Shown piece after piece: positions 31,318 through 43,642 of a stretch of DNA of 64,000 nucleotides (its first letter is position 1; each line of letters begins with the position of its first letter). The notes beneath the pieces are model-generated. The model did no database searches and was not told the DNA's origin. It saw only the letters and a program-made list of their open reading frames with translations. Source of the DNA: an uncultured Methanosarcinales archaeon. Its GTDB lineage: Archaea > Nanobdellota > Nanobdellia > Woesearchaeales > CAZOXR01. A program made the position numbers and the translations under genes. Where the stretch lies: assembly GCA_964566535.1 (NCBI GenBank), contig CAZMIO010000003.1, positions 89,153 to 153,152 on the forward strand, read 5' to 3'.

Positions 31318-32199
31318 ATGGACATTAGGAACATACAAAAAACAGGCAACATGCACTATGTTTACCTGCCAACAAGTTGGTGTAAAAAATACAATATCAG
31401 TTCAGATTCTAAAGTAGGCTTAACCACAAATAGTGATGGTTCAATCTCAATCTCACAGCAAACTAAAGAAGTAGAAGGCAAAATATTAAACCTAACTCTA
31501 TCAGAAGCAACATCTGATATCTTAATAAAACTGATCATGGCATGCTACATCAACCCAATAAAATCATTCAAAATCAAATTCGAAAAAAAAGTAGACCTAG
31601 CAAAAATCTTAGGACAAAAGAAATCAATCAGCGCATTAGAATTCGTTGAGCTCGACGGAAACCACATAACTCATGAATCATCAATATTTGTTAAGGACAC
31701 TCATTCTCTGTTAAAAACAATGGTAAAAAAGATTAAAAACCTAATTGGCGTAATGATCAACCATTATGACAGAGAAATCATCGAAAAATATGAAGAAGAA
31801 ATTGACAGAAGTAAACTGTTCATTACAAAATCAGTTACTGGCTCGTTAGTCTTAAACGAACCAACAAAACTAAAGACCATTGAACTACATTACATAGCTT
31901 TACTAACTTACGACCTTGAAAGGATGGTAGACTCTCTTATACTTGTAGACCCAAAAGAAAAAGATTTACTAAAAAAGACATTATCAGTAATCGATACAAT
32001 CTCAAATATTCTTGAAGAGCTAGACCAACTTACATTCACTAAAGTAATAGCATTAGAAAAGAAAATCTCATTGATTAAAACCCCAGTCGTCGAGAATTTA
32101 AAAACTTACGGTCAAAGAAGGATAAAAAGACACTTCTCAAACATCTCTGTAGTGCTGTTTGACTGGGCAATTACAAAGGAGGTAGAGAAAACTAAATAG
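31318..32199 (+). CDS. AbrB/SpoVT-type DNA-binding domain fused to a PhoU-like domain (putative phosphate-uptake regulator)
   Basis: The N-terminal swapped-hairpin motif (KTGNMHYVYLPTSWCKKYNI) is followed by a helical domain of about 200 aa. The architecture is known from archaeal PhoU-domain proteins. Confidence 0.45.
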   Translation: MDIRNIQKTGNMHYVYLPTSWCKKYNISSDSKVGLTTNSDGSISISQQTKEVEGKILNLTLSEATSDILIKLIMACYINPIKSFKIKFEKKVDLAKILGQKKSISALEFVELDGNHITHESSIFVKDTHSLLKTMVKKIKNLIGVMINHYDREIIEKYEEEIDRSKLFITKSVTGSLVLNEPTKLKTIELHYIALLTYDLERMVDSLILVDPKEKDLLKKTLSVIDTISNILEELDQLTFTKVIALEKKISLIKTPVVENLKTYGQRRIKRHFSNISVVLFDWAITKEVEKTK

Positions 32200-32266: not shown

Positions 32267-32575
32267 ATGTTTGAAATACTAAAAGACCTAAAAAAAGCAG
32301 AAGAAGAATCAAAGGATATACTAATTGATGCAAAAGAAAAAGCAGATCTTTCTATAAAGAACGCTAAAGAAAAAGGAAAAGAAAACCTAGCGAAGCTTGC
32401 TGAAAAGTTCAACAAGCAAAAAGAAGAACAATTAGAAACCACAAAAACAGAACTAGAAACAGAAACAAACGACATCGAAGACAAAGGAAAAAAAGACATT
32501 GCAGAGTTAAAAAAGAACTCTACATCAAATAAAACAACAGCAATAGACGAAACAAAAAAAGCAATACTAAAATAA
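32267..32575 (+). CDS. atpH: A-type ATP synthase subunit H
   Basis: It is a small, highly charged helical protein (102 aa) at the head of an atpHIKECFABD-ordered operon. Confidence 0.55.
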   Translation: MFEILKDLKKAEEESKDILIDAKEKADLSIKNAKEKGKENLAKLAEKFNKQKEEQLETTKTELETETNDIEDKGKKDIAELKKNSTSNKTTAIDETKKAILK

Positions 32576-32578
32576 AAA

Positions 32579-34555
32579 ATGTTCAGATCGCACGATATGA
32601 AGAAGGTAGTGATTTTTGCTCTTAATAATCACAGAGACACTATCCTTTCAAAGATACAAAAACTAGGTTTAATGCAGCCTGTTGACCTCAAAAAAAGCGA
32701 AGTCAAAGAGCTAAACAAACCATTAGATAATTCTAACTTAAGGAAAATATCAGATTCCCTCCTAAGAATCTCAAGGTTAGTTAACATATTAAAAATTCCC
32801 CCTAAGAAACCCTCATTTGTCCAATCAATTCTTGGACTAGACTTATTAGATAAAAAACCAGTCCAGCATCAAAATTACACTAAAGTACTACAAGAATCGG
32901 AATCATTTCTAAATAAACACGAAAAAGAATTAATCAATCTAGAAGACGACCACTCAAAACTCCTGGAAAGAGAAGAAGAACTTGGTGGGTTTCATGTAAT
33001 TGTAGAACTATTTGGTCAGCACAACATCCCCTTAGAACTCCTAGCATCAACTGAAAAGATCTCAATCGTAACTGGACGTGTCTCAAATGAACACAAGCAA
33101 AAACTAGAGCAGGAATTAAACGAAAAATTAAACTCAGAAGTCCATATCATCACAAAAGAACAAGATAAGAAAGAATCAATCATAACTGTAGTCTCATTAA
33201 AAGAAAAACTTCCAGACTTAAACTTCTTAATGAAGAAATATAACGTTTCACAATTCACGATTCCAGAATGGGGAATAAAAAAGGACCCTAAGAACTATGT
33301 TGAAACAGAACTCAAGAGTGTTGAGCTAAAAAAGGAAGAGATTATGGGCAAAATAAGCAAATATGCCTCTAACACATTTGAAGGAGCAGTAATCCTAAGA
33401 GAAGAACTAGAAATTCTAAAACACCGTTACGAGACAATACATTCTATGCTCGACTCAGAAAAATTCTTCGTACTTCAAGGATGGATTCTAGCAAACAAAC
33501 TAAAACATTTCGAAACTGAACTAAAGACATCAGTAAACGAAAGTATAATAATCAAAGTAGAAGACCCCAAGAAAGATGACAATCCACCAGTAGAATTATC
33601 AAATAAAAAACACTTCAAGCCATTTGAGATGCTAACTGAACTTTATGCACTACCTAAATATAAAGACCTAGACCCCACTTTCATCGTAGGTCCATTATTC
33701 CTTATTTTCGCAGCATTCATGTTAACAGATGCAGTTTACGGATTTTTCTTAGTTATACTAGGGATATTAATCTTAAAGAAATTCGCAAAATACTCAGAAA
33801 GTATGAAACAAATTGCAGTTATCATCTTAGGCATGGGGCTACTCACTGTAATGTTTGGTATTTTAACGGGTTCCTATTTTGGTGACTTCCCAAAGTACAT
33901 CTGGGGAATGGAACCTAAAGATTTAGCAATATGGAAAGACCCGCTAGAAGATCCATTATATTTCCTAATCATCGCAATTGGAACAGCAGTCATTTACTTA
34001 AACATCGGATTCATCCTAGGAGTTATTGAAGACTTCAGGAAACGAGACTTCAAAACAATGTTTAAGGAAAGATTAGTCTGGTTTATGCTCCAGGCAGGGA
34101 TAGCATTACTAATATTGAAGGCAAATCCAATTTTATTCTCACTCCTTGGCAAAGATATTGGTTTAGCAACATTAATCATCACAATTTCAGTACTATCTAT
34201 AGTGATAACATCAGGACCATTAGGTTTACTATCTATAACAGGACTCATGGGGGACATGATTTCATTTTCACGTCTTTTCGCACTATCATTATCTACAGCA
34301 GGAATTGCCCTAGCAGTCAACTTGCTGGCAAATCTTGTTAAAGACACACCATTTGTGGGAATAATCTTGGCAGCAATCATATTCTTAATTGGACATGCAT
34401 TTGGGTTTGTAATGAATTCAATAGGTAGTTTTGTACATTCACTAAGGTTACAATTCGTAGAATTCTTCGGAAGATTCTATGAAGGTGGTGGAGATAAATT
34501 CACCCCACTAAAGGAAGACCGTTATTATACAGAGGTTAAAGAAGATGACAATTGA
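32579..34555 (+). CDS. atpI: A-type ATP synthase subunit I (stator a-subunit)
   Basis: It is 658 aa, with a soluble N-terminal half and a C-terminal polytopic membrane domain containing the conserved Arg-bearing helix (..SFSRLFALSLS..). Confidence 0.85.
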   Translation: MFRSHDMKKVVIFALNNHRDTILSKIQKLGLMQPVDLKKSEVKELNKPLDNSNLRKISDSLLRISRLVNILKIPPKKPSFVQSILGLDLLDKKPVQHQNYTKVLQESESFLNKHEKELINLEDDHSKLLEREEELGGFHVIVELFGQHNIPLELLASTEKISIVTGRVSNEHKQKLEQELNEKLNSEVHIITKEQDKKESIITVVSLKEKLPDLNFLMKKYNVSQFTIPEWGIKKDPKNYVETELKSVELKKEEIMGKISKYASNTFEGAVILREELEILKHRYETIHSMLDSEKFFVLQGWILANKLKHFETELKTSVNESIIIKVEDPKKDDNPPVELSNKKHFKPFEMLTELYALPKYKDLDPTFIVGPLFLIFAAFMLTDAVYGFFLVILGILILKKFAKYSESMKQIAVIILGMGLLTVMFGILTGSYFGDFPKYIWGMEPKDLAIWKDPLEDPLYFLIIAIGTAVIYLNIGFILGVIEDFRKRDFKTMFKERLVWFMLQAGIALLILKANPILFSLLGKDIGLATLIITISVLSIVITSGPLGLLSITGLMGDMISFSRLFALSLSTAGIALAVNLLANLVKDTPFVGIILAAIIFLIGHAFGFVMNSIGSFVHSLRLQFVEFFGRFYEGGGDKFTPLKEDRYYTEVKEDDN

Positions 34556-37500
34556 GGATGTAGCTAACATCATCACAATTCCAATACAAAAGAATGGAGT
34601 TCCAGCTACTATCCAGGTTATTAACCAAACAGTAGCAGATACAGCATCTACTGCAATAACCAACATCTCAAACACAGCAGCAGATGCAGTAATCACCGTT
34701 TCAAACACAGCAGCAGATGTAGCAGTTAATACAACTAAAGCAGCAACAGTTCTATTAGGAATGGATTTCGGGAACCTAGATGGAAAAGCAGTAGCAATCA
34801 TTGGAGCAGGAATAGCAGTTGCAGCAGCAGGAATTGCATCAGCAATCGGAGCAGGAATTGTTGGTTCTACTGGAGCAAGAGAATCTGCAGAGGATCCAAA
34901 AAGATTTTCACAATCATTACTATTCCAAGCCCTACCTCAAACTCAGGGAATTTATGGTTTTTTAATAGCAATCCTAATCATGTTAGGCGCAGGAGTAATA
35001 GGCCCTGCAAAAGAAATAACTTTATCTCAAGGACTTGGCGCCCTAGGAGCTGGGTTAGCAGTTGGACTTGCAGCAGTATCAGCAATCGGTCAAGGGTTAG
35101 CCGCATCTGCTGGATTAGGAGCAACAGCAAGAGACAAAAAGATGTTCGGAAAATCAATCCTATTCTCAGTACTTCCAGAAACACAAGCACTATACGGATT
35201 CCTTGTAGCTATCCTTATATTAGTAGGATTCGGACTTTTCGGAACTGCACCAGTAGACATACCAATCGCAGCTGGTTGGGCAGCAGTTGGAGCAGGTCTT
35301 GCAATAGGTCTTGCAGGTATCAGTGCAATCGGTCAGGGAATCGCTGCAGCAGGAAGCATTGGGGCAGTCTTAGAAAAAAGCAAGGCATTTGGTAAATCAG
35401 TTATATTCGCAGTACTCCCAGAAACACAAGCCCTATACGGATTCATAATCGCAATCTTAATCCTCATTGGATTCGGAATCCTAGGAACAGCAACTACAGC
35501 ACTTTCATTTGGAGCAGCACTATTCACAATTGCAGCAGGATTAAGTGTTGGTCTTGCAGCAGTATCGGCAATCGGTCAGGGAATCGCAGCATCTTCAGGG
35601 GTAAATGCAGTAGCCTCAAATGACAAATCATTCGGAAAATCAATCCTATTCTCAGTACTCCCAGAAACACAAGCACTATACGGCTTTTTAATTGCCATCC
35701 TTCTTCTAGTTGGAGCAGGAATAATTGGAGCTGCAAAAGCAGGCATAACTACCCCAATAGGAGTCATTGCAATCGGTGCAGGACTTGCAGCAGGTATTGC
35801 AGGTATCAGTGCAATCGGTCAGGGAATCGCAGCCAGCGCAGGAATTAATGCAGTAAGTCAAAAACCAAAATCATTCGGAAAAGCTATTCTTTTCAGTGTC
35901 CTCCCAGAAACACAAGCACTATACGGCTTCCTAATAGCTATCCTCTTATTAGTTGGAGGGGGAATATTAGGAACAGCAAAGCTTGGAATTGAAATTCACG
36001 TTGGATTAATAGCAATCGGAGCAGGCCTTGCAACAGGTCTTGCAGCAATCTCAGCAGTAGGTCAGGGAATCGCAGCCTCATCAGGAATAGCAACAGTAGC
36101 TAAAGACGAAAAATCATTCGGAAAATCAATCCTATTCAGCGTCTTACCAGAAACACAAGCACTATACGGCTTCCTAATAGCAATCTTATTAATGGTAGGC
36201 GGAGGATTACTAGGTGCAATCAAATCAGGATTAAATATATCAACAGGACTTATTGCAATCGGTGCAGGCTTAGCAACTGGTCTTGCAGCAGTATCAGCAA
36301 TCGGTCAGGGAATCGCAGCCTCATCAGGCATTAACACAGTTTCAAAAAATCCAAAATCATTCGGAAAATCAATCCTATTCTCAGTACTTCCAGAAACACA
36401 AGCCCTATACGGCTTCCTAATAGCAATCCTACTAATGGTAGGCGGAGGAATAGTTGGAGCAACAACAACTGGATTATCATCCGGAATTGGATTAATCGCA
36501 GTTGGATGTGGTATAGCAGTTGGATTTGCAGCAGTCTCAGCAGTAGGTCAGGGAATCGCAGCCAGCGCAGGAATCAATGCAGTAAACGAAAACCCAAAAT
36601 CATTCGGAAAATCAATCCTATTCTCAGTCTTACCAGAAACACAAGCACTATACGGCTTCCTAATAGCAATCCTACTAATGGTAGGCGGAGGATTAGTTGG
36701 AATAGTCAAACAAGGAATAGACCTCCCTATAGGATTAGTGGCAATCGGAGCTGCCATTGCAACAGGAATTGCAGGTATCAGCGCAGTAGGTCAGGGAATG
36801 GCAGCATCATCTGGAATAGCAACAGTAGCTAAAGACGAAAAATCATTCGGAAAATCAATCCTATTCTCAGTCTTACCAGAAACACAAGCACTATACGGCT
36901 TCCTAATAGCAATCCTACTAATGGTAGGGGGAGGATTATTGGGTGTAATCAAAGAAGGCATAAGCATAGCTATTGGTTTTGTGGCAATCGGTGCAGGACT
37001 TGCAGCAGGTTTAGCAGCAGTCTCAGCAGTTGGTCAAGGAATCGCGGCCTCATCCGGTATTAATACAGTTTCAAGAAATCCAAAATCATTCGGAAAATCA
37101 ATCCTATTCAGCGTCTTACCAGAAACACAAGCACTATACGGCTTCCTAATCGCTGTACTTCTACTTGTAGGCGGAGGAATAATCGGAGTAATAAATCCTA
37201 ATATCAACTTACCAGTTGGATTAATAGCAATCGGTGCAGGACTTGCAACAGGTTTAGCAGCAGTCTCAGCAGTAGGTCAGGGAATGGCAGCAGCTGCAGG
37301 AGCAGAAGCAGCATCTGAAGATCCAAAATCATTCGGAAAATCAATCCTATTCAGCGTCTTACCAGAAACACAAGCACTATACGGCTTCCTAATAGCAATC
37401 CTACTAGTAGCTTCAGGAGGAATACTGGGAGCAGCAAAACCAGGCCTTACAGTACCGATTGGACTTGTAGCAGTTGGTGCAGGAGTATCTATCGGAGTTG

Positions 37501-37916
37501 CATGTTTGTCTGCTCTTGGTCAAGGAATCGCAGCATCCTCCGGTATCGGATCTATACTTGAAAGAAAGAATATTTTTGGAAAGTCAGTATTGTTCTCAGT
37601 ACTTCCAGAAACACAAGCTCTTTACGGAATTATCATATCCATACTTCTTTTGACAGGAGTTGGACTTTTAGGTACAATAAAATCAGGGATAACAATTACA
37701 CAAGGTATTGGTGGAATTGGAATTGGAATAGCAATGGGTCTAGCCGCAGTTAGTGCAGTAGGTCAAGGAATTGTGTCTGCATCTTCAATAGGTGCTGCAG
37801 TAAGAGACCAAAAATCAACTGGAAAAAGCCTAGTATTAAGTGTTATTCCAGAAACATACGCAATATTTGGATTATTAATATCAATACTATTATTGATAGG
37901 ATTAAAATTTATATGA
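34545..37916 (+). CDS. atpK: A-type ATP synthase proteolipid (c subunit), 13 fused hairpins in one 1123-aa polypeptide
   Basis: Thirteen tandem units of about 81 aa have the form GAGLA.GLAA.SA.GQG.A...KSFGKSILFSVLPETQALYGFLIAILL. Twelve carry the E of P-E-T-Q, and the first has P-Q-T-Q. The start is uncertain, either M at 34545 or MDFGNLD at 34758. Confidence 0.85.
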   Translation: MTIEDVANIITIPIQKNGVPATIQVINQTVADTASTAITNISNTAADAVITVSNTAADVAVNTTKAATVLLGMDFGNLDGKAVAIIGAGIAVAAAGIASAIGAGIVGSTGARESAEDPKRFSQSLLFQALPQTQGIYGFLIAILIMLGAGVIGPAKEITLSQGLGALGAGLAVGLAAVSAIGQGLAASAGLGATARDKKMFGKSILFSVLPETQALYGFLVAILILVGFGLFGTAPVDIPIAAGWAAVGAGLAIGLAGISAIGQGIAAAGSIGAVLEKSKAFGKSVIFAVLPETQALYGFIIAILILIGFGILGTATTALSFGAALFTIAAGLSVGLAAVSAIGQGIAASSGVNAVASNDKSFGKSILFSVLPETQALYGFLIAILLLVGAGIIGAAKAGITTPIGVIAIGAGLAAGIAGISAIGQGIAASAGINAVSQKPKSFGKAILFSVLPETQALYGFLIAILLLVGGGILGTAKLGIEIHVGLIAIGAGLATGLAAISAVGQGIAASSGIATVAKDEKSFGKSILFSVLPETQALYGFLIAILLMVGGGLLGAIKSGLNISTGLIAIGAGLATGLAAVSAIGQGIAASSGINTVSKNPKSFGKSILFSVLPETQALYGFLIAILLMVGGGIVGATTTGLSSGIGLIAVGCGIAVGFAAVSAVGQGIAASAGINAVNENPKSFGKSILFSVLPETQALYGFLIAILLMVGGGLVGIVKQGIDLPIGLVAIGAAIATGIAGISAVGQGMAASSGIATVAKDEKSFGKSILFSVLPETQALYGFLIAILLMVGGGLLGVIKEGISIAIGFVAIGAGLAAGLAAVSAVGQGIAASSGINTVSRNPKSFGKSILFSVLPETQALYGFLIAVLLLVGGGIIGVINPNINLPVGLIAIGAGLATGLAAVSAVGQGMAAAAGAEAASEDPKSFGKSILFSVLPETQALYGFLIAILLVASGGILGAAKPGLTVPIGLVAVGAGVSIGVACLSALGQGIAASSGIGSILERKNIFGKSVLFSVLPETQALYGIIISILLLTGVGLLGTIKSGITITQGIGGIGIGIAMGLAAVSAVGQGIVSASSIGAAVRDQKSTGKSLVLSVIPETYAIFGLLISILLLIGLKFI
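34830..37900 (+). repeat. intragenic tandem repeat with a period of about 243 nt and about 13 copies, encoding the c-subunit hairpins
   Basis: The string ccagaaacacaag recurs near 35175, 35418, 35661, 35904, 36148, 36390, 36634, 36877, 37120, 37360 and 37605. The central copies are nearly identical over more than 100 nt. Confidence 0.9.
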
Positions 37917-37919
37917 TGA

Positions 37920-38489
37920 ATGGTGATACAAATGAACGGTGCGCAAAATATAAAAAACAAAATTTTGGAAGAAGCAAAGATAGAAGCTGATAAAATATTA
38001 GCAGAAGCTAAACTAGAAGAAGATAAGATAGCTAGCAACAACAAAAAGGAAGAAGAAAACTACACAAAAAAAAGAGAAGACGAAATAGAAAAAGCAGTAA
38101 AACTCTTCAAAGACAAAACATTAGCTCAAGCTAGATTAAAGGCAAAAAGAGATTACTTAGATGAACGTGAAACAATTATAGAAAAATACATCAAAGAAGG
38201 CATAAAATCAATAAGCAGTTCATCAAAGGACTACCAGGAATATATGAAAAAAATCCTGACAAAAAACATAAAACTCCTTTCAGGAGAGATAACAGTTTTC
38301 TGCAACAAAAGTGACCAACCACTGGTAAAAAAGATTGTAGGGGATGAAGCAAAAGTAGAAACCGCTAGAATTACTGGTGGAGTTACTATGGAAGACTCAA
38401 CCGGAGTTAAAATTGACGAGTCAATTGAATCAAAGGTAGAAAGAGTTAAGGATACGTTAAGACAAAAAATAGTAAAGTCAATCGAGTAA
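37920..38489 (+). CDS. atpE: A-type ATP synthase subunit E
   Basis: It is 189 aa, with a charged helical N-terminus (ILEEAKIEADKILAEAK), and sits at the operon position after K. Confidence 0.7.
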   Translation: MVIQMNGAQNIKNKILEEAKIEADKILAEAKLEEDKIASNNKKEEENYTKKREDEIEKAVKLFKDKTLAQARLKAKRDYLDERETIIEKYIKEGIKSISSSSKDYQEYMKKILTKNIKLLSGEITVFCNKSDQPLVKKIVGDEAKVETARITGGVTMEDSTGVKIDESIESKVERVKDTLRQKIVKSIE

Positions 38490-38493
38490 AAAA

Positions 38494-39537
38494 ATGGATG
38501 TAACAATACCTTTAGTAATAGGAGCAGCAACTTTAGCAGGAGTTGTAGTAATAGCTCCAGTTACAAAGTACGCATTGGATATCTATCCTTTCCTGTATGC
38601 CAACACAAGGTGTTCTTCTAGACTAAGTTTTTTACTGACTAAGAAGTCATACGAAGAATTATTGGCATCAACAAGTAAAGATGAGGCTTTTGCTTTGCTA
38701 GAGGATTCCTATTATAGTAAGATTGTTGAACATTCAAAAGATTTTTTTTCATTTTCAGAATCATTAGAAGATGACGCTTACAATACTTATAACTGGCTTT
38801 CAACAATTGTACCTCCAGTTATAGCTCCAATAATCAATTCCCTAAATATGAAGTTCGAGATTAGTGAAATAAAAAAGATATTAAATGCATTAAAGGAAAA
38901 CAAGGATGTCGAAGAAATAAAGTTCATAAGTGACCCTGAGTTGAAATTAAAACTAGAGTCAGCAAAAGACTTCCAGTCATTAACAGTAGCATTAGAGGGG
39001 ACCCATTACAATGTAGTATTTCAGAATAAATCATTAGACCAATTAAGTGAACTCAATACTCAACTTGACAAATATTATCTTGGGAACCTTATTAGTACAA
39101 TCAATGTTGTTACAGACAAAAAGGCAGCAGAACCATTCTTGGAATATGCAAGGGTTCTTATTGACATGTTTAACATTAGAGCGTTGATAAGAGGGATAGG
39201 CGCAAACAAAAACACCGAGCTTATAGAATCTGGAAATCTAAACAAGGAAGAACTCACCGGGGTAACTGATATTGCTCAATTAGGATCAACACTAACTAAC
39301 AGCATATATGGGGAGTTCATTGGAGATATCAACAATTTGAATATTGAAAATGGATTCTATAAATTCTTTTTGAAACAAGCAGGTAACGTAGTAGCAAAAT
39401 ACACAATTAAGTCAGGTTCAGTTGTAAGGTTCATAATCATGAAAGAAATAGAAACAAGAAACTTAAATTCATTAATAAAACTAAAATCAGAAGGCTTCCA
39501 ACAGGAAAAAATAAGGCCTTTGTTGATGGTGGAATAA
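38494..39537 (+). CDS. atpC: A-type ATP synthase subunit C
   Basis: It is 347 aa and helical, in the operon position between E and F. Confidence 0.7.
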   Translation: MDVTIPLVIGAATLAGVVVIAPVTKYALDIYPFLYANTRCSSRLSFLLTKKSYEELLASTSKDEAFALLEDSYYSKIVEHSKDFFSFSESLEDDAYNTYNWLSTIVPPVIAPIINSLNMKFEISEIKKILNALKENKDVEEIKFISDPELKLKLESAKDFQSLTVALEGTHYNVVFQNKSLDQLSELNTQLDKYYLGNLISTINVVTDKKAAEPFLEYARVLIDMFNIRALIRGIGANKNTELIESGNLNKEELTGVTDIAQLGSTLTNSIYGEFIGDINNLNIENGFYKFFLKQAGNVVAKYTIKSGSVVRFIIMKEIETRNLNSLIKLKSEGFQQEKIRPLLMVE

Positions 39538-39538
39538 G

Positions 39539-39838
39539 ATGGACATAGCAATAATAGCAGATAAAGACACAATAATTGGATTCAAATTAGCAGGAGTAAG
39601 AAACTCAGCAGTATTCAACGAAAAAACAATAAAAGAAGACATAATAAAATTCAAAGAGTCTCATATTTTAATCTTGACAGAAAATATTGCAAAGACTGTA
39701 AGGGAAAACAAATTAGAAAAACTAATTGAAGGAGTGATTGTTGAAGTTCCTGATAAAAATGGATCAACAGGACTTGCAACAAACGAAATATCAAGATTAT
39801 TTGAAGAGGCAATAGGTGTAAAACTTAAAGAAAATTAA
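39539..39838 (+). CDS. atpF: A-type ATP synthase subunit F
   Basis: It is 99 aa, starting [20 protein letters not shown], which is typical of A/V-type F subunits. Confidence 0.7.
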
Positions 39839-39854
39839 CCTCGGAGGGATTATA

Positions 39855-41639
39855 ATGGAATCAAAAACAGAATCAAACGGAAAAATCATCAAAATTGCAG
39901 GACCAGTTGTAGTTGCATCTGGTATGGCTGGAGTTAAGATGTATGAGGTCGTAAGAGTGGGAAAAGAAAGACTTATTGGAGAAGTCATTGAGCTCTTAGA
40001 AGACAAAGCAACAATCCAGGTTTATGAAGAAACATCTGGAATTGCACCAGGAGCAGAAGTTGTAGCAACAGGATCATCACTATCAGTTGAATTAGGTCCA
40101 GGAGTCATCGGAAATATCTATGACGGAATCATGAGGCCTTTAAACATCATCCAGGAAAAGTCTGGAGAATTCATTGCTAGAGGAATTGAAGCTGACTCAA
40201 TTGACCACAAAAAGAAATGGCCCTTTAAGCCACTAGCAAAAAAAGGCGACAAAGTAACTGGTGGACAGATCATAGGAGAAGTTACAGAAACATCAATGGT
40301 CGTACAAAGAATAATGGTCCCTTCAGATGTTGAGGGGGAACTTACCGAGATAGTTGGTGAAGGATCTTATACCGTAAAATCAACAATAGCAAAAGTAAAA
40401 ACAAAAGATGGAGAAACAGAAATTAATCTGATGCAAAAATGGCCAGTTAGGATTCCAAGACCTAACAAAGACAAACAAGAACCATCAATCCCATTAATAA
40501 CTGGACAAAGAATATTAGATACATTTAATCCATTAGCAAAAGGGGGAACAGCAGCTATCCCAGGTGGATTCGGAACTGGTAAGACTGTAACTCAGCAATC
40601 ATTGGCTAAATGGTGTGATGCAGATATCATAGTCTACATTGGATGTGGAGAACGAGGAAATGAGATGACAGATGTTCTAAAAACATTCCCTCATCTAACA
40701 GATCCAAGATCAGGTAAACCATTATTAGAAAGAACAGTTATCATCGCAAATACATCAAACATGCCAGTGGCAGCAAGAGAAGCATCAGTCTATACTGGAA
40801 TTACAATTGCTGAATATTTCAGAGACATGGGCTATGATGTAGCATTGATGGCTGACTCAACCTCAAGATGGGCAGAAGCAATGAGAGAAATTTCATCTAG
40901 ACTGGAAGAGATGCCAGGGGAAGAAGGTTATCCCGCTTATTTAGCTACAAGACTTTCTCAATTCTATGAAAGAGCAGGCCGTGTCAAAACCTTAAGCGGG
41001 AAAGAAGGCTCAGTTTCAGTTATTGGAGCTATCAGTCCTCCAGGTGGAGACTTCTCAGAACCAGTTACTCAAAATACGCTAAGAGTTAACAAAACATTCT
41101 GGGCATTAGACAAGAGCTTAGCATCCAGAAGACATTTCCCGGCAATTAATTGGTTAAACTCTTATTCATTATACTTAGAAAGCGTAACAGCTTGGTTTAA
41201 TGAACATTCAGGGGAATCATGGAGAGACTTAAGGAACAAAGCAATGGAACTTCTACAAAAAGAAGAACAATTGCAAGAAATTGTTCAATTGGTTGGTCCT
41301 GATGCTTTACCAGACACCGAAAGGTTGATCTTGGAAGTTACCAAAATCTTAAGAGAAGACTTCCTTCAGCAAAACGCTTATCACGATGTGGATGCTTTCT
41401 GTCCAATCAGAAAACAGACTTTAATGTTGAAATTAATACTAGAGTTCTATGATATGGCACAGGCTGCATTAAAAGAAGGAGCTCCAATTGACTCAATTGC
41501 AGGAATGAAGATAAAAGATTCACTTGCAAGGATGAAAGAACATAGCAACGACACATTTGAACAACATTACGAGGAGTTGAAGAAAAACATGACAACAGAG
41601 TTTAGCCAGATTAAATCTGGGGGTGATTCAAATGAGTAG
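39855..41639 (+). CDS. atpA: A-type ATP synthase catalytic subunit A
   Basis: It has the P-loop [10 protein letters not shown], is 594 aa, and contains the non-homologous insert typical of A/V-type A subunits. Confidence 0.95.
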
Positions 41640-43008
41640 TATAATAGAATATTCAAGCATAAAAGAAATCGCAGGACCGTTGATGATAGTTGAAAAGGTA
41701 AAAAACGTTGCTTACGGTGAATTAGTTGAAATAAAGATAGGAAAAGAAAAAAGAACCGGACAAGTTCTTGAAGCAAGAGACGACATAGCAGTTGTTCAGG
41801 TGTTCGAAGGAACTAGGGGCCTTGCAACAAAAGGAGTAACAGCAAGATTCACTGGGGAAACAATGAAGGTTGGCTTAAGCAAAGATGTTATTGGTAGAAT
41901 CTTTAACGGAATTGGAAAGCCAATTGACAAGGGTCCTGAAATCATAGCAGAAAAGAGAATGGATGTTAATGGACTAGCAATAAATCCAACTGCAAGAGAA
42001 TTCCCAGAGGAATTCATTCAAACAGGAATTTCCACAATTGATGTGATGAACACATTAGTGAGAGGTCAAAAACTTCCATTATTCTCAGAAGCGGGACTTC
42101 CTCATAATGAGATTGCAGCTCAGATTGCAAGACAGGCAGCTGTTAAGGGAAAAGATAATTTTGCGGTAATATTTGCAGCAATGGGAATCACTTTCGAAGA
42201 AGCAAAATTCTTCATGAATGACTTCGAAAGAACAGGAGCAATTGAAAACATGGTGGCTTTCATCAACCTAGCTGACGACCCAGCAATTGAAAGGATCATT
42301 ACACCAAGAATCGCCTTAACAACTGCTGAATACCTAGCTTACGAAAAAGACATGCATATCTTAGTTATTTTAACTGATATGACAAACTATTGCGAAGCTT
42401 TAAGGGAAATTGCAGCAGCTAGAAACGAGATTCCTGGAAGACGTGGATATCCTGGATACATGTATACTGACCTAGCAATGAACTACGAAAGAGCTGGAAA
42501 GATACACGGCAAAAAAGGATCTGTAACTCAGATTCCTATATTGACAATGCCGCAAGGGGACATTTCTCACCCAATTCCAGACCTAACTGGCTACATTACA
42601 GAAGGACAGATTGTAGTTTCAAAAGAACTACACAGAAAAGGAATCTATCCACCGATAAATCCATTACCATCTTTATCTAGATTGATGAACGAAGGTATAG
42701 GGGAAGGAAAAACAAGAGAAGACCATTCTGGAGTTTCTAACCAGCTTTATGCTGGCTATGCAGAAGGAAACGACTTAAGAGACTTAGTAGCAGTTGTTGG
42801 AGAAGAAGCACTGTCTGATAAGGATAAAAAGTTCTTAAAGTTCGCAGAAGGCTTTGAAGACAAGTTCATAAGACAAGGTAGAGATGAAAATAGGGACATT
42901 GATTTATCCTTACAAGTTGGATGGGATTTATTCAAGTCATTACCTGTCGAAGAATTAAAGAAACTAGACTTAAAGCACATTGAAAAGTTTTTGAAGAAAC
43001 AAGCATAA
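41623..43008 (+). CDS. atpB: A-type ATP synthase subunit B
   Basis: It is 461 aa and homologous to A/V-type B subunits (..[18 protein letters not shown]..). It overlaps the atpA 3' end. Confidence 0.95.
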
Positions 43009-43012
43009 GAAC

Positions 43013-43642
43013 ATGGCGTCTCAAATAAAAGCAGCAACACGAATGGAATTGTTAAGGCTGAAGAAAAAAGTAGCTTTAGCTGGAAAAGGACATAAATTGC
43101 TGAAAGAAAAGAGAGATGCCCTAGTTTCTGAATTCTTCAAATTAATCGACAGCCTAAAAGCAATAAGAAAAGAAATGGAAGACAAGATTTCAGTTGCATT
43201 CAACTCTTTAATCATGGCACAAGCAATTTCTGGTGTTGGAGAAATTGAACGTGCAGCAGACTCCACAAAAGAAGTGGGAGAAATAGAATTCAAACCCAAT
43301 AACATAATGGGAGTTAAAGTTCCTATTTTTAATTTTAAGAAGGCTGAAACAACAATAGCAGATAAAGGATATTCTTTGTTCTCAACATCTTTAGAGTTAG
43401 ACACTGCATCAAAGAACTTCGAAGAAGTTCTAAATATAATCGTAAAGCTAGCAGAAGCAGAAGCAACAGTAAGAAGACTAGCAGAAGAAATAAAGAAAAC
43501 CAAAAGAAAAGTAAACGCTTTAGAAAGAATCTTAATCCCAAGACTAAATGACGATATTGTATATATTAAGATGCGTTTAGAAGAGATGGAAAGAGAAAAC
43601 TTCTCAAGATTAAAGGTAATTAAGAAGCGTATTTCAGAATGA
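43013..43642 (+). CDS. atpD: A-type ATP synthase subunit D (central stalk)
   Basis: It is a 209-aa coiled-coil protein starting MASQIKAATRMELLRLKKKVALAGKGHKLLKEKRDAL. Confidence 0.85.
   Translation: MASQIKAATRMELLRLKKKVALAGKGHKLLKEKRDALVSEFFKLIDSLKAIRKEMEDKISVAFNSLIMAQAISGVGEIERAADSTKEVGEIEFKPNNIMGVKVPIFNFKKAETTIADKGYSLFSTSLELDTASKNFEEVLNIIVKLAEAEATVRRLAEEIKKTKRKVNALERILIPRLNDDIVYIKMRLEEMERENFSRLKVIKKRISE

Follow-up and report, generated by a model that had tools for sequence, protein, structure and literature searches.

Which part of a repeated protein unit is kept alike in DNA when many copies of that unit stand head to tail in one gene, and by what process? This question is raised by atpK (34545..37916, plus strand), the proteolipid gene in the A-type ATP synthase operon of an uncultured archaeon. 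The operon lies in a stretch of 64,000 nucleotides (nt) from contig CAZMIO010000003.1 (GenBank assembly GCA_964566535.1), here called the window, and all positions are counted from its first letter. A first-pass annotation of the window, made from the letters alone, had noted near-identical units inside the gene and proposed ongoing gene conversion or recent amplification. Our analysis shows that the near-identity is restricted to about one third of each unit, the segment encoding helix 2, and points to an old array of 13 units overlaid, quite probably, by short-tract intragenic gene conversion focused on this segment.

Anatomy of the atpK repeat array

The gene is one uninterrupted open reading frame (ORF) of 3,372 nt that encodes 1123 amino acids (aa) with 13 tandem proteolipid hairpins, the arrangement by which a single-chain ("monomeric") rotor is recognized. 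The Pfam family ATP-synt_C (PF00137) matched 13 stretches of the product (E 2.5e-221, 716.7 bits against a cutoff of 24). This profile match, the carboxylate in the second helix and the position in the operon beside subunit I/a identify AtpK as a proteolipid (subunit K/c) of an A/V-type ATP synthase. With unit borders set by anchoring on the motif P-[EQ]-T-[QY], the protein divides into a 72-aa N-terminal extension and 13 hairpin units of 81 aa (243 nt). The units start at 34761, 35001 and then from 35244 onward at 243-nt steps, and the array spans 34761-37916. The 243-nt tandem units reported in the first pass were also recovered by Tandem Repeats Finder (period 243, 8.0 copies, 76% matches, 35550-37484), and the span then given, 35090-37650, lies inside the array, which runs further.

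The second-helix carboxylate, the Glu of P-E-T-Q/Y, is found in 12 of the 13 hairpins. Unit 1 (34761..35003, plus strand as all units) is a diverged hairpin with the motif PQTQ, in which Gln stands in place of the Glu and GAG replaces GQG; it has a positional orthologue in relatives, and Gln occupies this position in every DPANN homologue examined that covers the first hairpin. The motif reads PETQALY in units 2-12 and PETY in unit 13. Units 2-5 (35001..35972), which likewise have positional orthologues in relatives, are of intermediate divergence, with a partly homogenized helix 2 (71-87% identity in this segment to units 6-11). The latter form the homogenized central block (35973..37430), and the diverged terminal hairpins 12 and 13 (37431..37916) are not homogenized and have positional orthologues in all relatives; in unit 13, Phe stands at the Tyr position.

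Near-identity is confined to helix 2

The claim that the central 9-10 units are almost identical does not hold for whole units. Within units 5-11 the nucleotide identity of whole units is 72-85%, as compared to 62-74% between these units and units 2-4, while units 1, 12 and 13 reach only 44-63%; measured against the central consensus, every unit stays at or below 87%. In a sliding profile the near-identity among units 6-11 was restricted to unit offsets of approximately 135-227, which encode KSFGKSILFSVLPETQALYGFLIAILL (helix 2), and a second, smaller peak was seen at the GQG motif. Compared pairwise, units 6-11 agree at 84-100% of positions in helix 2, with 100% between units 8 and 9, and at 59-79% in their first 135 nt (the N-part). 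What remains of the claim is therefore a tract of approximately 90 nt in six units. The divergence of the terminal units that had been described was found in units 1-3, 12 and 13.

The 80-mer quoted in the first pass as recurring with few substitutions occurs without a mismatch in unit 8, with two in unit 9 and with three each in units 7 and 11; no match at this threshold (≤ 3 mismatches) was obtained in shuffles. For the other units the description is too generous, with 6-7 mismatches in units 6 and 10, 9-12 in units 2, 4 and 5 and 18-26 in units 1, 3, 12 and 13. Exact repeats on the plus strand, all in register, mark the same segment. The longest in the gene measures 90 nt and is shared by units 8 and 9 (36596-36685 and 36839-36928), followed by repeats of 76 nt in units 6 and 11 (36110-36185 and 37325-37400), 73 nt in units 10 and 11 (37078-37150 and 37321-37393) and 69 nt in units 6 and 10 (36110-36178 and 37082-37150), and the spacing is in each case a multiple of 243 nt. 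The first copy of the 76-nt repeat is held by the helix-2 tract of unit 6 (36108..36199); the tract of unit 7 is located at 36351..36442.

Synonymous sites are homogenized beyond codon bias

In helix 2 of units 6-11, codons for the same amino acid at the same site are identical at a frequency of 0.88; where the sites differ, the frequency for a shared amino acid is 0.57. When codons were shuffled among positions with the same amino acid within a unit (2000 shuffles) the value was 0.738 +/- 0.017 with a maximum of 0.81 (P ≤ 0.0005), and codon bias as the sole cause of the likeness was rejected on these two comparisons. Within units 6-11 the proportion of synonymous differences (pS) was 0.18 for helix 2 but 0.46 for the N-part, and between these units and the terminal ones it was 0.55-0.58. 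Saturation of synonymous sites, which the first-pass annotation had named as the observation that would speak against its proposal, is thus absent from helix 2 and nearly reached in the rest of the unit.

Between genomes the situation is different. The near-invariant helix-2 peptide of the window and its relatives is encoded with a codon identity of only 0.21-0.50, a level equal to that of the flanking single-copy atp genes (0.34-0.60), and for this reason we consider synonymous sites to be saturated between genomes and those of the paralogous helix-2 segments not to be. A function of the tract as an RNA element or otherwise at the nucleotide level was considered and rejected, as no Rfam family at gathering score and, by ARAGORN, no tRNA gene was found across the 64-kb window, and as the synonymous states are not conserved between genomes.

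Positional orthology and lineage-specific likeness in relatives

The atpK DNA was compared with that of six further DPANN genomes (L006, L007, L008, L010, L013 and L017). A protein-based metagenome scan for further contigs gained only L017 and L018, and an exact 38-mer unique to unit 6 had no match in the metagenome collection scanned. In the closest relatives the best protein match of window units 1-6, 12 and 13 is the unit at the same position, and the N-part DNA follows this positional pattern; units 5-8 have position-specific best matches in L007. Because units 1-6, 12 and 13 keep positional counterparts, the 13-unit array predates these lineages. Across the wider set of relatives a positional best match is consistent only for units 1-3, 12 and 13. 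Thirteen is the usual number of units in full-length DPANN relatives and in Methanopyrus, and several relatives have 12.

In helix 2 it is the paralogue in the same genome that is closest. For window units 6-11 the best paralogue is 90-100% identical and the best unit of any other genome 80-85%. Across the six DPANN genomes, 51 of 58 central units had their nearest neighbor in helix-2 nucleotides among the paralogues of their own genome, as compared to 35 of 58 for helix 1 plus loop. The homogenized sets differ between genomes, with units 6/7/10 and 4/9 in L006, 6/7/9 in L007, 4/5/6 in L008, 5/6/7 in L010, 5/8 in L013 and almost none in L017. Among the DPANN genes examined, the window atpK shows the most extensive homogenization and the longest exact repeat.

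The two parts of a unit have different histories

Units 8 and 9, with not a single difference in helix 2, are the least similar of all pairs in the N-part (59%). In the N-part, unit 6 pairs with unit 9 and unit 7 with unit 10, and the identity matrices of helix 2 and N-part are negatively correlated (Mantel r = -0.37). A Sawyer-type permutation of polymorphic sites gave a sum of squared condensed fragments (SSCF) beyond all permutations (P ≤ 0.0005) in four genomes, also when only third positions were used. The 90-nt identical patch has diverged sequence (~59%) on either side, and we therefore take it for a short non-reciprocal tract rather than the copy of a whole unit. A three-unit (729-nt) higher-order repeat was considered as well and rejected, since the N-part pairs 6/9 and 7/10 are present but 8/11 reaches only 64%.

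Unit-number differences map to the exact repeats

The 13-unit atpK of the window is base-for-base identical in three Joint Genome Institute (JGI) contigs (L001-L003) and in two NCBI contigs of metagenome-assembled genomes (MAGs; L019 and L020). At least six contigs carry 13 units, and one further 13-unit allele has one residue changed. As the first pass had anticipated, unit number is variable, or collapses, in short-read assemblies: two contigs that otherwise match the window have 12 and 8 units, and a 13/12 pair occurs in a second species. The 12-unit contig (L004) lacks 243 nt of the window, and its deletion junction falls within the 90-nt repeat. Over 6.3 kb its only base changes are T>C at 36186 and 36189 (4047 and 4050 in L004), 3 nt apart and immediately 3' of the 76-nt repeat, and they convert the TTATTA of unit 6 to the CTACTA of units 7-9 and 11. 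This two-base change looks templated by a paralogue; it may be a conversion allele that segregates in the population, or else the assembler may have switched paths. The 8-unit contig (L005), a scaffold of 2.9x coverage with two N gaps, lacks 1215 nt (five units), has its junction inside the 76-nt repeat and is otherwise identical. In the other species, L013 and L014 are identical but for one unit, and the junction lies in a 28-nt helix-2 repeat.

The two deletions in the window population thus fall at the two longest exact repeats, as expected for homologous recombination or for assembler path errors, and the proposal of a recombination or assembly hotspot is borne out by these junctions. In view of the 13 units found in at least six contigs and of the low coverage of the 8-unit scaffold, we judge misassembly likelier than real deletion for the 12- and 8-unit contigs. 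That real alleles underlie the versions with 12 and 8 hairpins and the 13/12 pair, generated by unequal recombination at helix-2 repeats that conversion maintains, appears rather improbable to us.

Origin of the helix-2 tracts

The likeness of the helix-2 DNA might involve no exchange of DNA at all and reflect extreme purifying selection on the peptide combined with the codons that the genome prefers. The peptide, FGKSILFSVLPETQALYGFLIAILL, is near-invariant within and between genomes, and the baselines set by codon bias are high already (0.57-0.74). The observed codon identity nevertheless lies above every one of the 2000 codon shuffles; one amino acid is given different codons at different sites and the same codon across units, with Leu encoded by TTA at VLP and by CTA at ILF, ALY and FLI; and helix 2 of the terminal units 2, 3, 12 and 13, subject to the same codon bias in the same genome, has no excess of codon identity (0.52 vs. 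0.54). With the set of matching units also changing from genome to genome, we regard codon choice under protein conservation as a very unlikely explanation. Alternatively, units 6-11 may stem from recent duplication of whole units or of a three-unit block, in which helix 2 has not diverged yet. The N-part identities of units 6 and 9 (79%), 7 and 10 (77%) and 6 and 11 (75%), all above the best match in any other genome, would fit such an origin, as would the spacing of these pairs, which hints at a 729-nt block, and the several relatives with 12 units. For recent copies, however, a uniformly low pS is expected, not one that is low only in helix 2, and the opposite behavior of the two parts of units 8 and 9, mirrored in the negative Mantel correlation, is hard to obtain by copying whole units. 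The positional matches of units 5-8 in L007 and the usual count of 13 in full-length DPANN relatives and Methanopyrus add to this, and we consider amplification unlikely as the source of the central block. The recent amplification suggested in the first pass is thus disfavored by the disagreement between unit halves, by the positional orthology of units 1-6, 12 and 13 and by the 13 units of most full-length relatives.

A different concern is that short-read assemblers merged similar paths, so that the true helix-2 segments are more different, or the true unit number is another one. The presence of 13-, 12- and 8-unit contigs from the same population, the gapped 2.9x scaffold and the chimera-like two-base change in L004 would all be in line with an artefact. 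Set against this are the recovery of one and the same 13-unit sequence from JGI as well as NCBI assemblies, in at least six contigs, together with the one-residue allele, and the length of the longest exact repeat, which at 90 nt is shorter than typical 150-nt reads (read length assumed). Moreover, helix-2 identity is graded (84-100%) and not all-or-none, and like tracts occur in relatives whose contig names point to other assemblers and in a complete Methanopyrus record. An artefact as the general explanation is therefore quite unlikely in our view. Some observations do weigh against the conversion that we favor, or limit it. All relatives are synonymously saturated, so no conversion event is dated or polarised. 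With third positions only, the single longest fragment gave P values of 0.025-0.15, and only the summed statistic was consistently significant. The N-parts of units 9-11 are 75-79% identical to units 6 and 7 as compared to 60-72% to any foreign unit, and whole-unit duplication and loss around units 9-11 may have contributed. Part of the helix-2 homogenization could have been introduced by short-read assemblers, and no clear signature of GC-biased conversion was found, the GC content at third codon positions being 0.32 in the homogenized tracts and 0.24 in terminal helix 2, a gap too small for interpretation; GC-biased conversion was accordingly dropped as a candidate.

Taken together, we find an old 13-unit array with short-tract gene conversion in helix 2 to be the probable explanation, and we infer conversion, rather than another templated process, as the molecular mechanism. 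The array would be old because units 1-6, 12 and 13 are orthologous by position in genomes with saturated synonymous sites, and conversion would copy tracts of ~50-150 nt between units, repeatedly and mainly in the helix-2 segment. In solved c/K rings helix 2 is the carboxylate-bearing outer helix that faces the stator. Each hairpin would show the same surface to subunit a on passing, and the helix-2 peptide would thereby be held uniform by purifying selection, whereas helix 1, the linkers and the terminal hairpins, which would only pack on fixed neighbors, would be free to diverge and to gain position-specific identities. A uniform peptide would leave residual DNA identity, which would permit conversion; conversion in turn would wipe out synonymous differences and lengthen the identical tracts, a self-reinforcing loop that may have gone furthest in units 6-11 of the window lineage. 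The terminal units, with diverged helix-2 peptides that are conserved across species, are presumably shielded both by selection and by too little identity. The resulting exact repeats could then be used in unequal recombination in the cell and could equally lead short-read assemblers onto wrong paths. The concerted evolution put forward in the first pass, with gene conversion behind it, would accordingly apply to a helix-2 tract of ~90 nt in six units and not to whole 243-nt units.

Predicted rotor and neighboring genes

The AtpK chain is predicted from its sequence to be the whole membrane rotor of the A-type ATP synthase, folded as one ring. An AlphaFold2 model built with 11 homologues had a mean predicted local distance difference test score (pLDDT) of 75, a predicted template modelling score of 0.79, 26 transmembrane helices and a disordered N-terminus. 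Hairpin 1 presumably lacks an ion site and is inert. With 12 Glu-bearing hairpins, one turn would move 12 ions, which for an enzyme of three catalytic sites makes 4 per ATP, and the Q...ETQ..Y pattern, which fits the Na+ motif of PMC2359735, suggests Na+ as the coupling ion. In many of the DPANN homologues P0005-P0016 units 6 and 9/10 have, like unit 1, Gln in place of the Glu (PQTQ). Rings of 13 hairpins would then hold 10-12 ion sites depending on the lineage, while the number of hairpins stays constant.

The N-terminal extension (34545..34760, plus strand) lies outside the repeat array. Its 72-aa translation is rich in Asn, Thr, Ser and Ala, and also in Val, and the pLDDT is below 50 for residues 1-77. 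It contains the N-X-S/T sequons NQT, NIS and NTT and an imperfect internal repeat (SNTAADAVITV / SNTAADVAVNT). In AtpK homologues the extension is unconserved and varies in length from 0 to 146 aa. If translated, it would be a tail on the rotating ring.

The operon is complete, with the gene order I-K-E-C-F-A-B-D on the plus strand and subunits backed by Pfam matches. Upstream, atpI (32579..34555) is a 658-aa ORF for the a-type stator subunit (V_ATPase_I, E 1e-19) that overlaps the start of atpK by 11 nt. Downstream follow atpE (37920-38489), atpC (38494-39537), atpF (39539-39838), atpA (39855-41639), atpB (41623-43008) and atpD (43013-43642). An ORF of 102 aa directly 5' of atpI (32267-32575) has a sub-threshold match to V-ATPase_G (E 0.005, 17.7 bits against a cutoff of 28.6) and probably encodes the peripheral-stalk subunit H; the 293-aa ORF before it (31318-32199) has no match in Pfam.

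The window has a GC content of 35.8%, and close AtpK homologues carry the labels Nanoarchaeota or Nanobdellota. Identical atpK genes are present in two GenBank MAGs named Candidatus Woesearchaeota archaeon (GCA_030750365.1 and GCA_030752895.1; L019 3343-6714 and L020 3137-6508), where the intact 3372 nt equal window positions 34545-37916. In both, the annotation, "V-type ATP synthase subunit K", covers no more than the C-terminal 237 aa (units 11-13), which leaves an apparently unannotated stretch of ~2.6 kb and illustrates that public annotation may miss this gene.

Implications for rotor stoichiometry

In ordinary ATP synthases ring size is set by the packing of identical c subunits. For a single-chain rotor it is the number of repeats in the DNA that fixes the size, and in the window atpK the homogenization falls exactly on the DNA for the ion-binding helix that faces the stator. 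The coincidence of 70-90-nt exact repeats with unit-number differences offers a testable one-step route to a changed rotor stoichiometry and ion/ATP ratio. If the shorter versions were real alleles, one recombination event would alter the ion sites per turn and with them the ion/ATP ratio, and conversion would keep up the substrate for this "gear shift". With 13, 12 and 8 units out of one population, hairpin counts taken from short-read MAGs are in any case unreliable.

Comparison with known systems

In Methanopyrus kandleri a K subunit with 13 hairpins in a single chain has been described (Lolkema & Boekema 2003, as cited in PMC2359735), and c subunits of "1, 2, 3, or even 13 hairpins" are mentioned in reviews (PMC9171764). 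The architecture is thus not new, and the window gene is a further example of it, in Woesearchaeota (DPANN). Within the library searched, M. kandleri was the only case that came up for single-chain rotors in DPANN or concerted evolution of c/K genes. In DPANN archaea, single-chain rotors in which one hairpin is inert appear to be common, so that the textbook case of Methanopyrus would not stand alone.

Multi-hairpin single-chain c/K proteins were also seen well beyond Methanopyrus and DPANN (P0042-P0070, P0019, P0021, P0023, P0035 and P0071-P0087). They include Thermoplasmata proteins of ~620 aa in which 6 hairpins come after N-terminal PKD domains, proteins of 1118-1186 aa with an N-terminal PF22619 domain and 12 hairpins, Asgard (Promethearchaeota) proteins of 1108-1147 aa and F-type c proteins of ~750-900 aa in Gracilibacteria and Vampirococcus. 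It is odd to find a folded extracellular domain joined to a rotor.

Among solved structures, NtpK of Enterococcus hirae (PDB 2BL2) is the closest by sequence (E 2.4e-19), and it superimposes on two adjacent modelled AtpK hairpins (2bl2_A; template modelling score 0.87, root-mean-square deviation 1.6 A, 36% identity). A fold search of the PDB recovered only c/K chains of one or two hairpins. The helix-1 Gln and the helix-2 E-T-Q...Y of AtpK resemble the Na+-binding motif given in PMC2359735 (by our own reading of the motif). NtpK differs in having two hairpins with one ion site and in forming a homo-oligomeric ring, whereas AtpK consists of 13 fused hairpins, nearly all with a site.

The Methanopyrus homologues share with AtpK a single ORF of ~1000-1100 aa, 13 tandem two-helix hairpins and an A-type operon (aligned at ~50% identity across 89% of the query, E 1.5e-273). 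These homologues keep the Glu in each of the 13 hairpins, and for M. kandleri the full set of ion-binding residues is stated to be present in every one (PMC2359735). The window atpK departs from this in hairpin 1, which lacks both Glu and Gln (GAG, PQTQ), and in hairpin 13, which is a variant (PETY...F). Methanopyrus units measure 74-81 aa and those of the window uniformly 81 aa, and the 72-aa N-terminal extension is a further difference. Compared hairpin by hairpin, the best match between window and Methanopyrus was positional for hairpins 1 and 2 only, with no diagonal for the rest, and a common 13-mer ancestor of the two rotors is unproven. Both genes show exact repeats between units, and in Methanopyrus sporadic unit pairs are homogenized. 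In the complete genome record of Methanopyrus sp. KOL6 (L015, CP019470.1) units 3 and 5 share an exact direct repeat of 143 nt (gene positions 547-689 and 1015-1157), longer than any in the DPANN genes examined. With such pairs present in a complete record, conversion seems to be a general property of such genes and not a metagenomic artefact. Homogenization of helix 2 is far more extensive in the window atpK.

Polyubiquitin-type genes, with head-to-tail repeats in one ORF, are the familiar case in which concerted evolution is credited to gene conversion and unequal crossing-over, and in which repeat number is labile. The window atpK resembles them in its in-frame tandem repeats, its strongly conserved peptide and its synonymous sites, which are more alike within than between genomes. 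It differs in that homogenization covers approximately one third of each unit and half of the units, that the terminal units keep their positional identities, and that the count of 13 appears constant across species.

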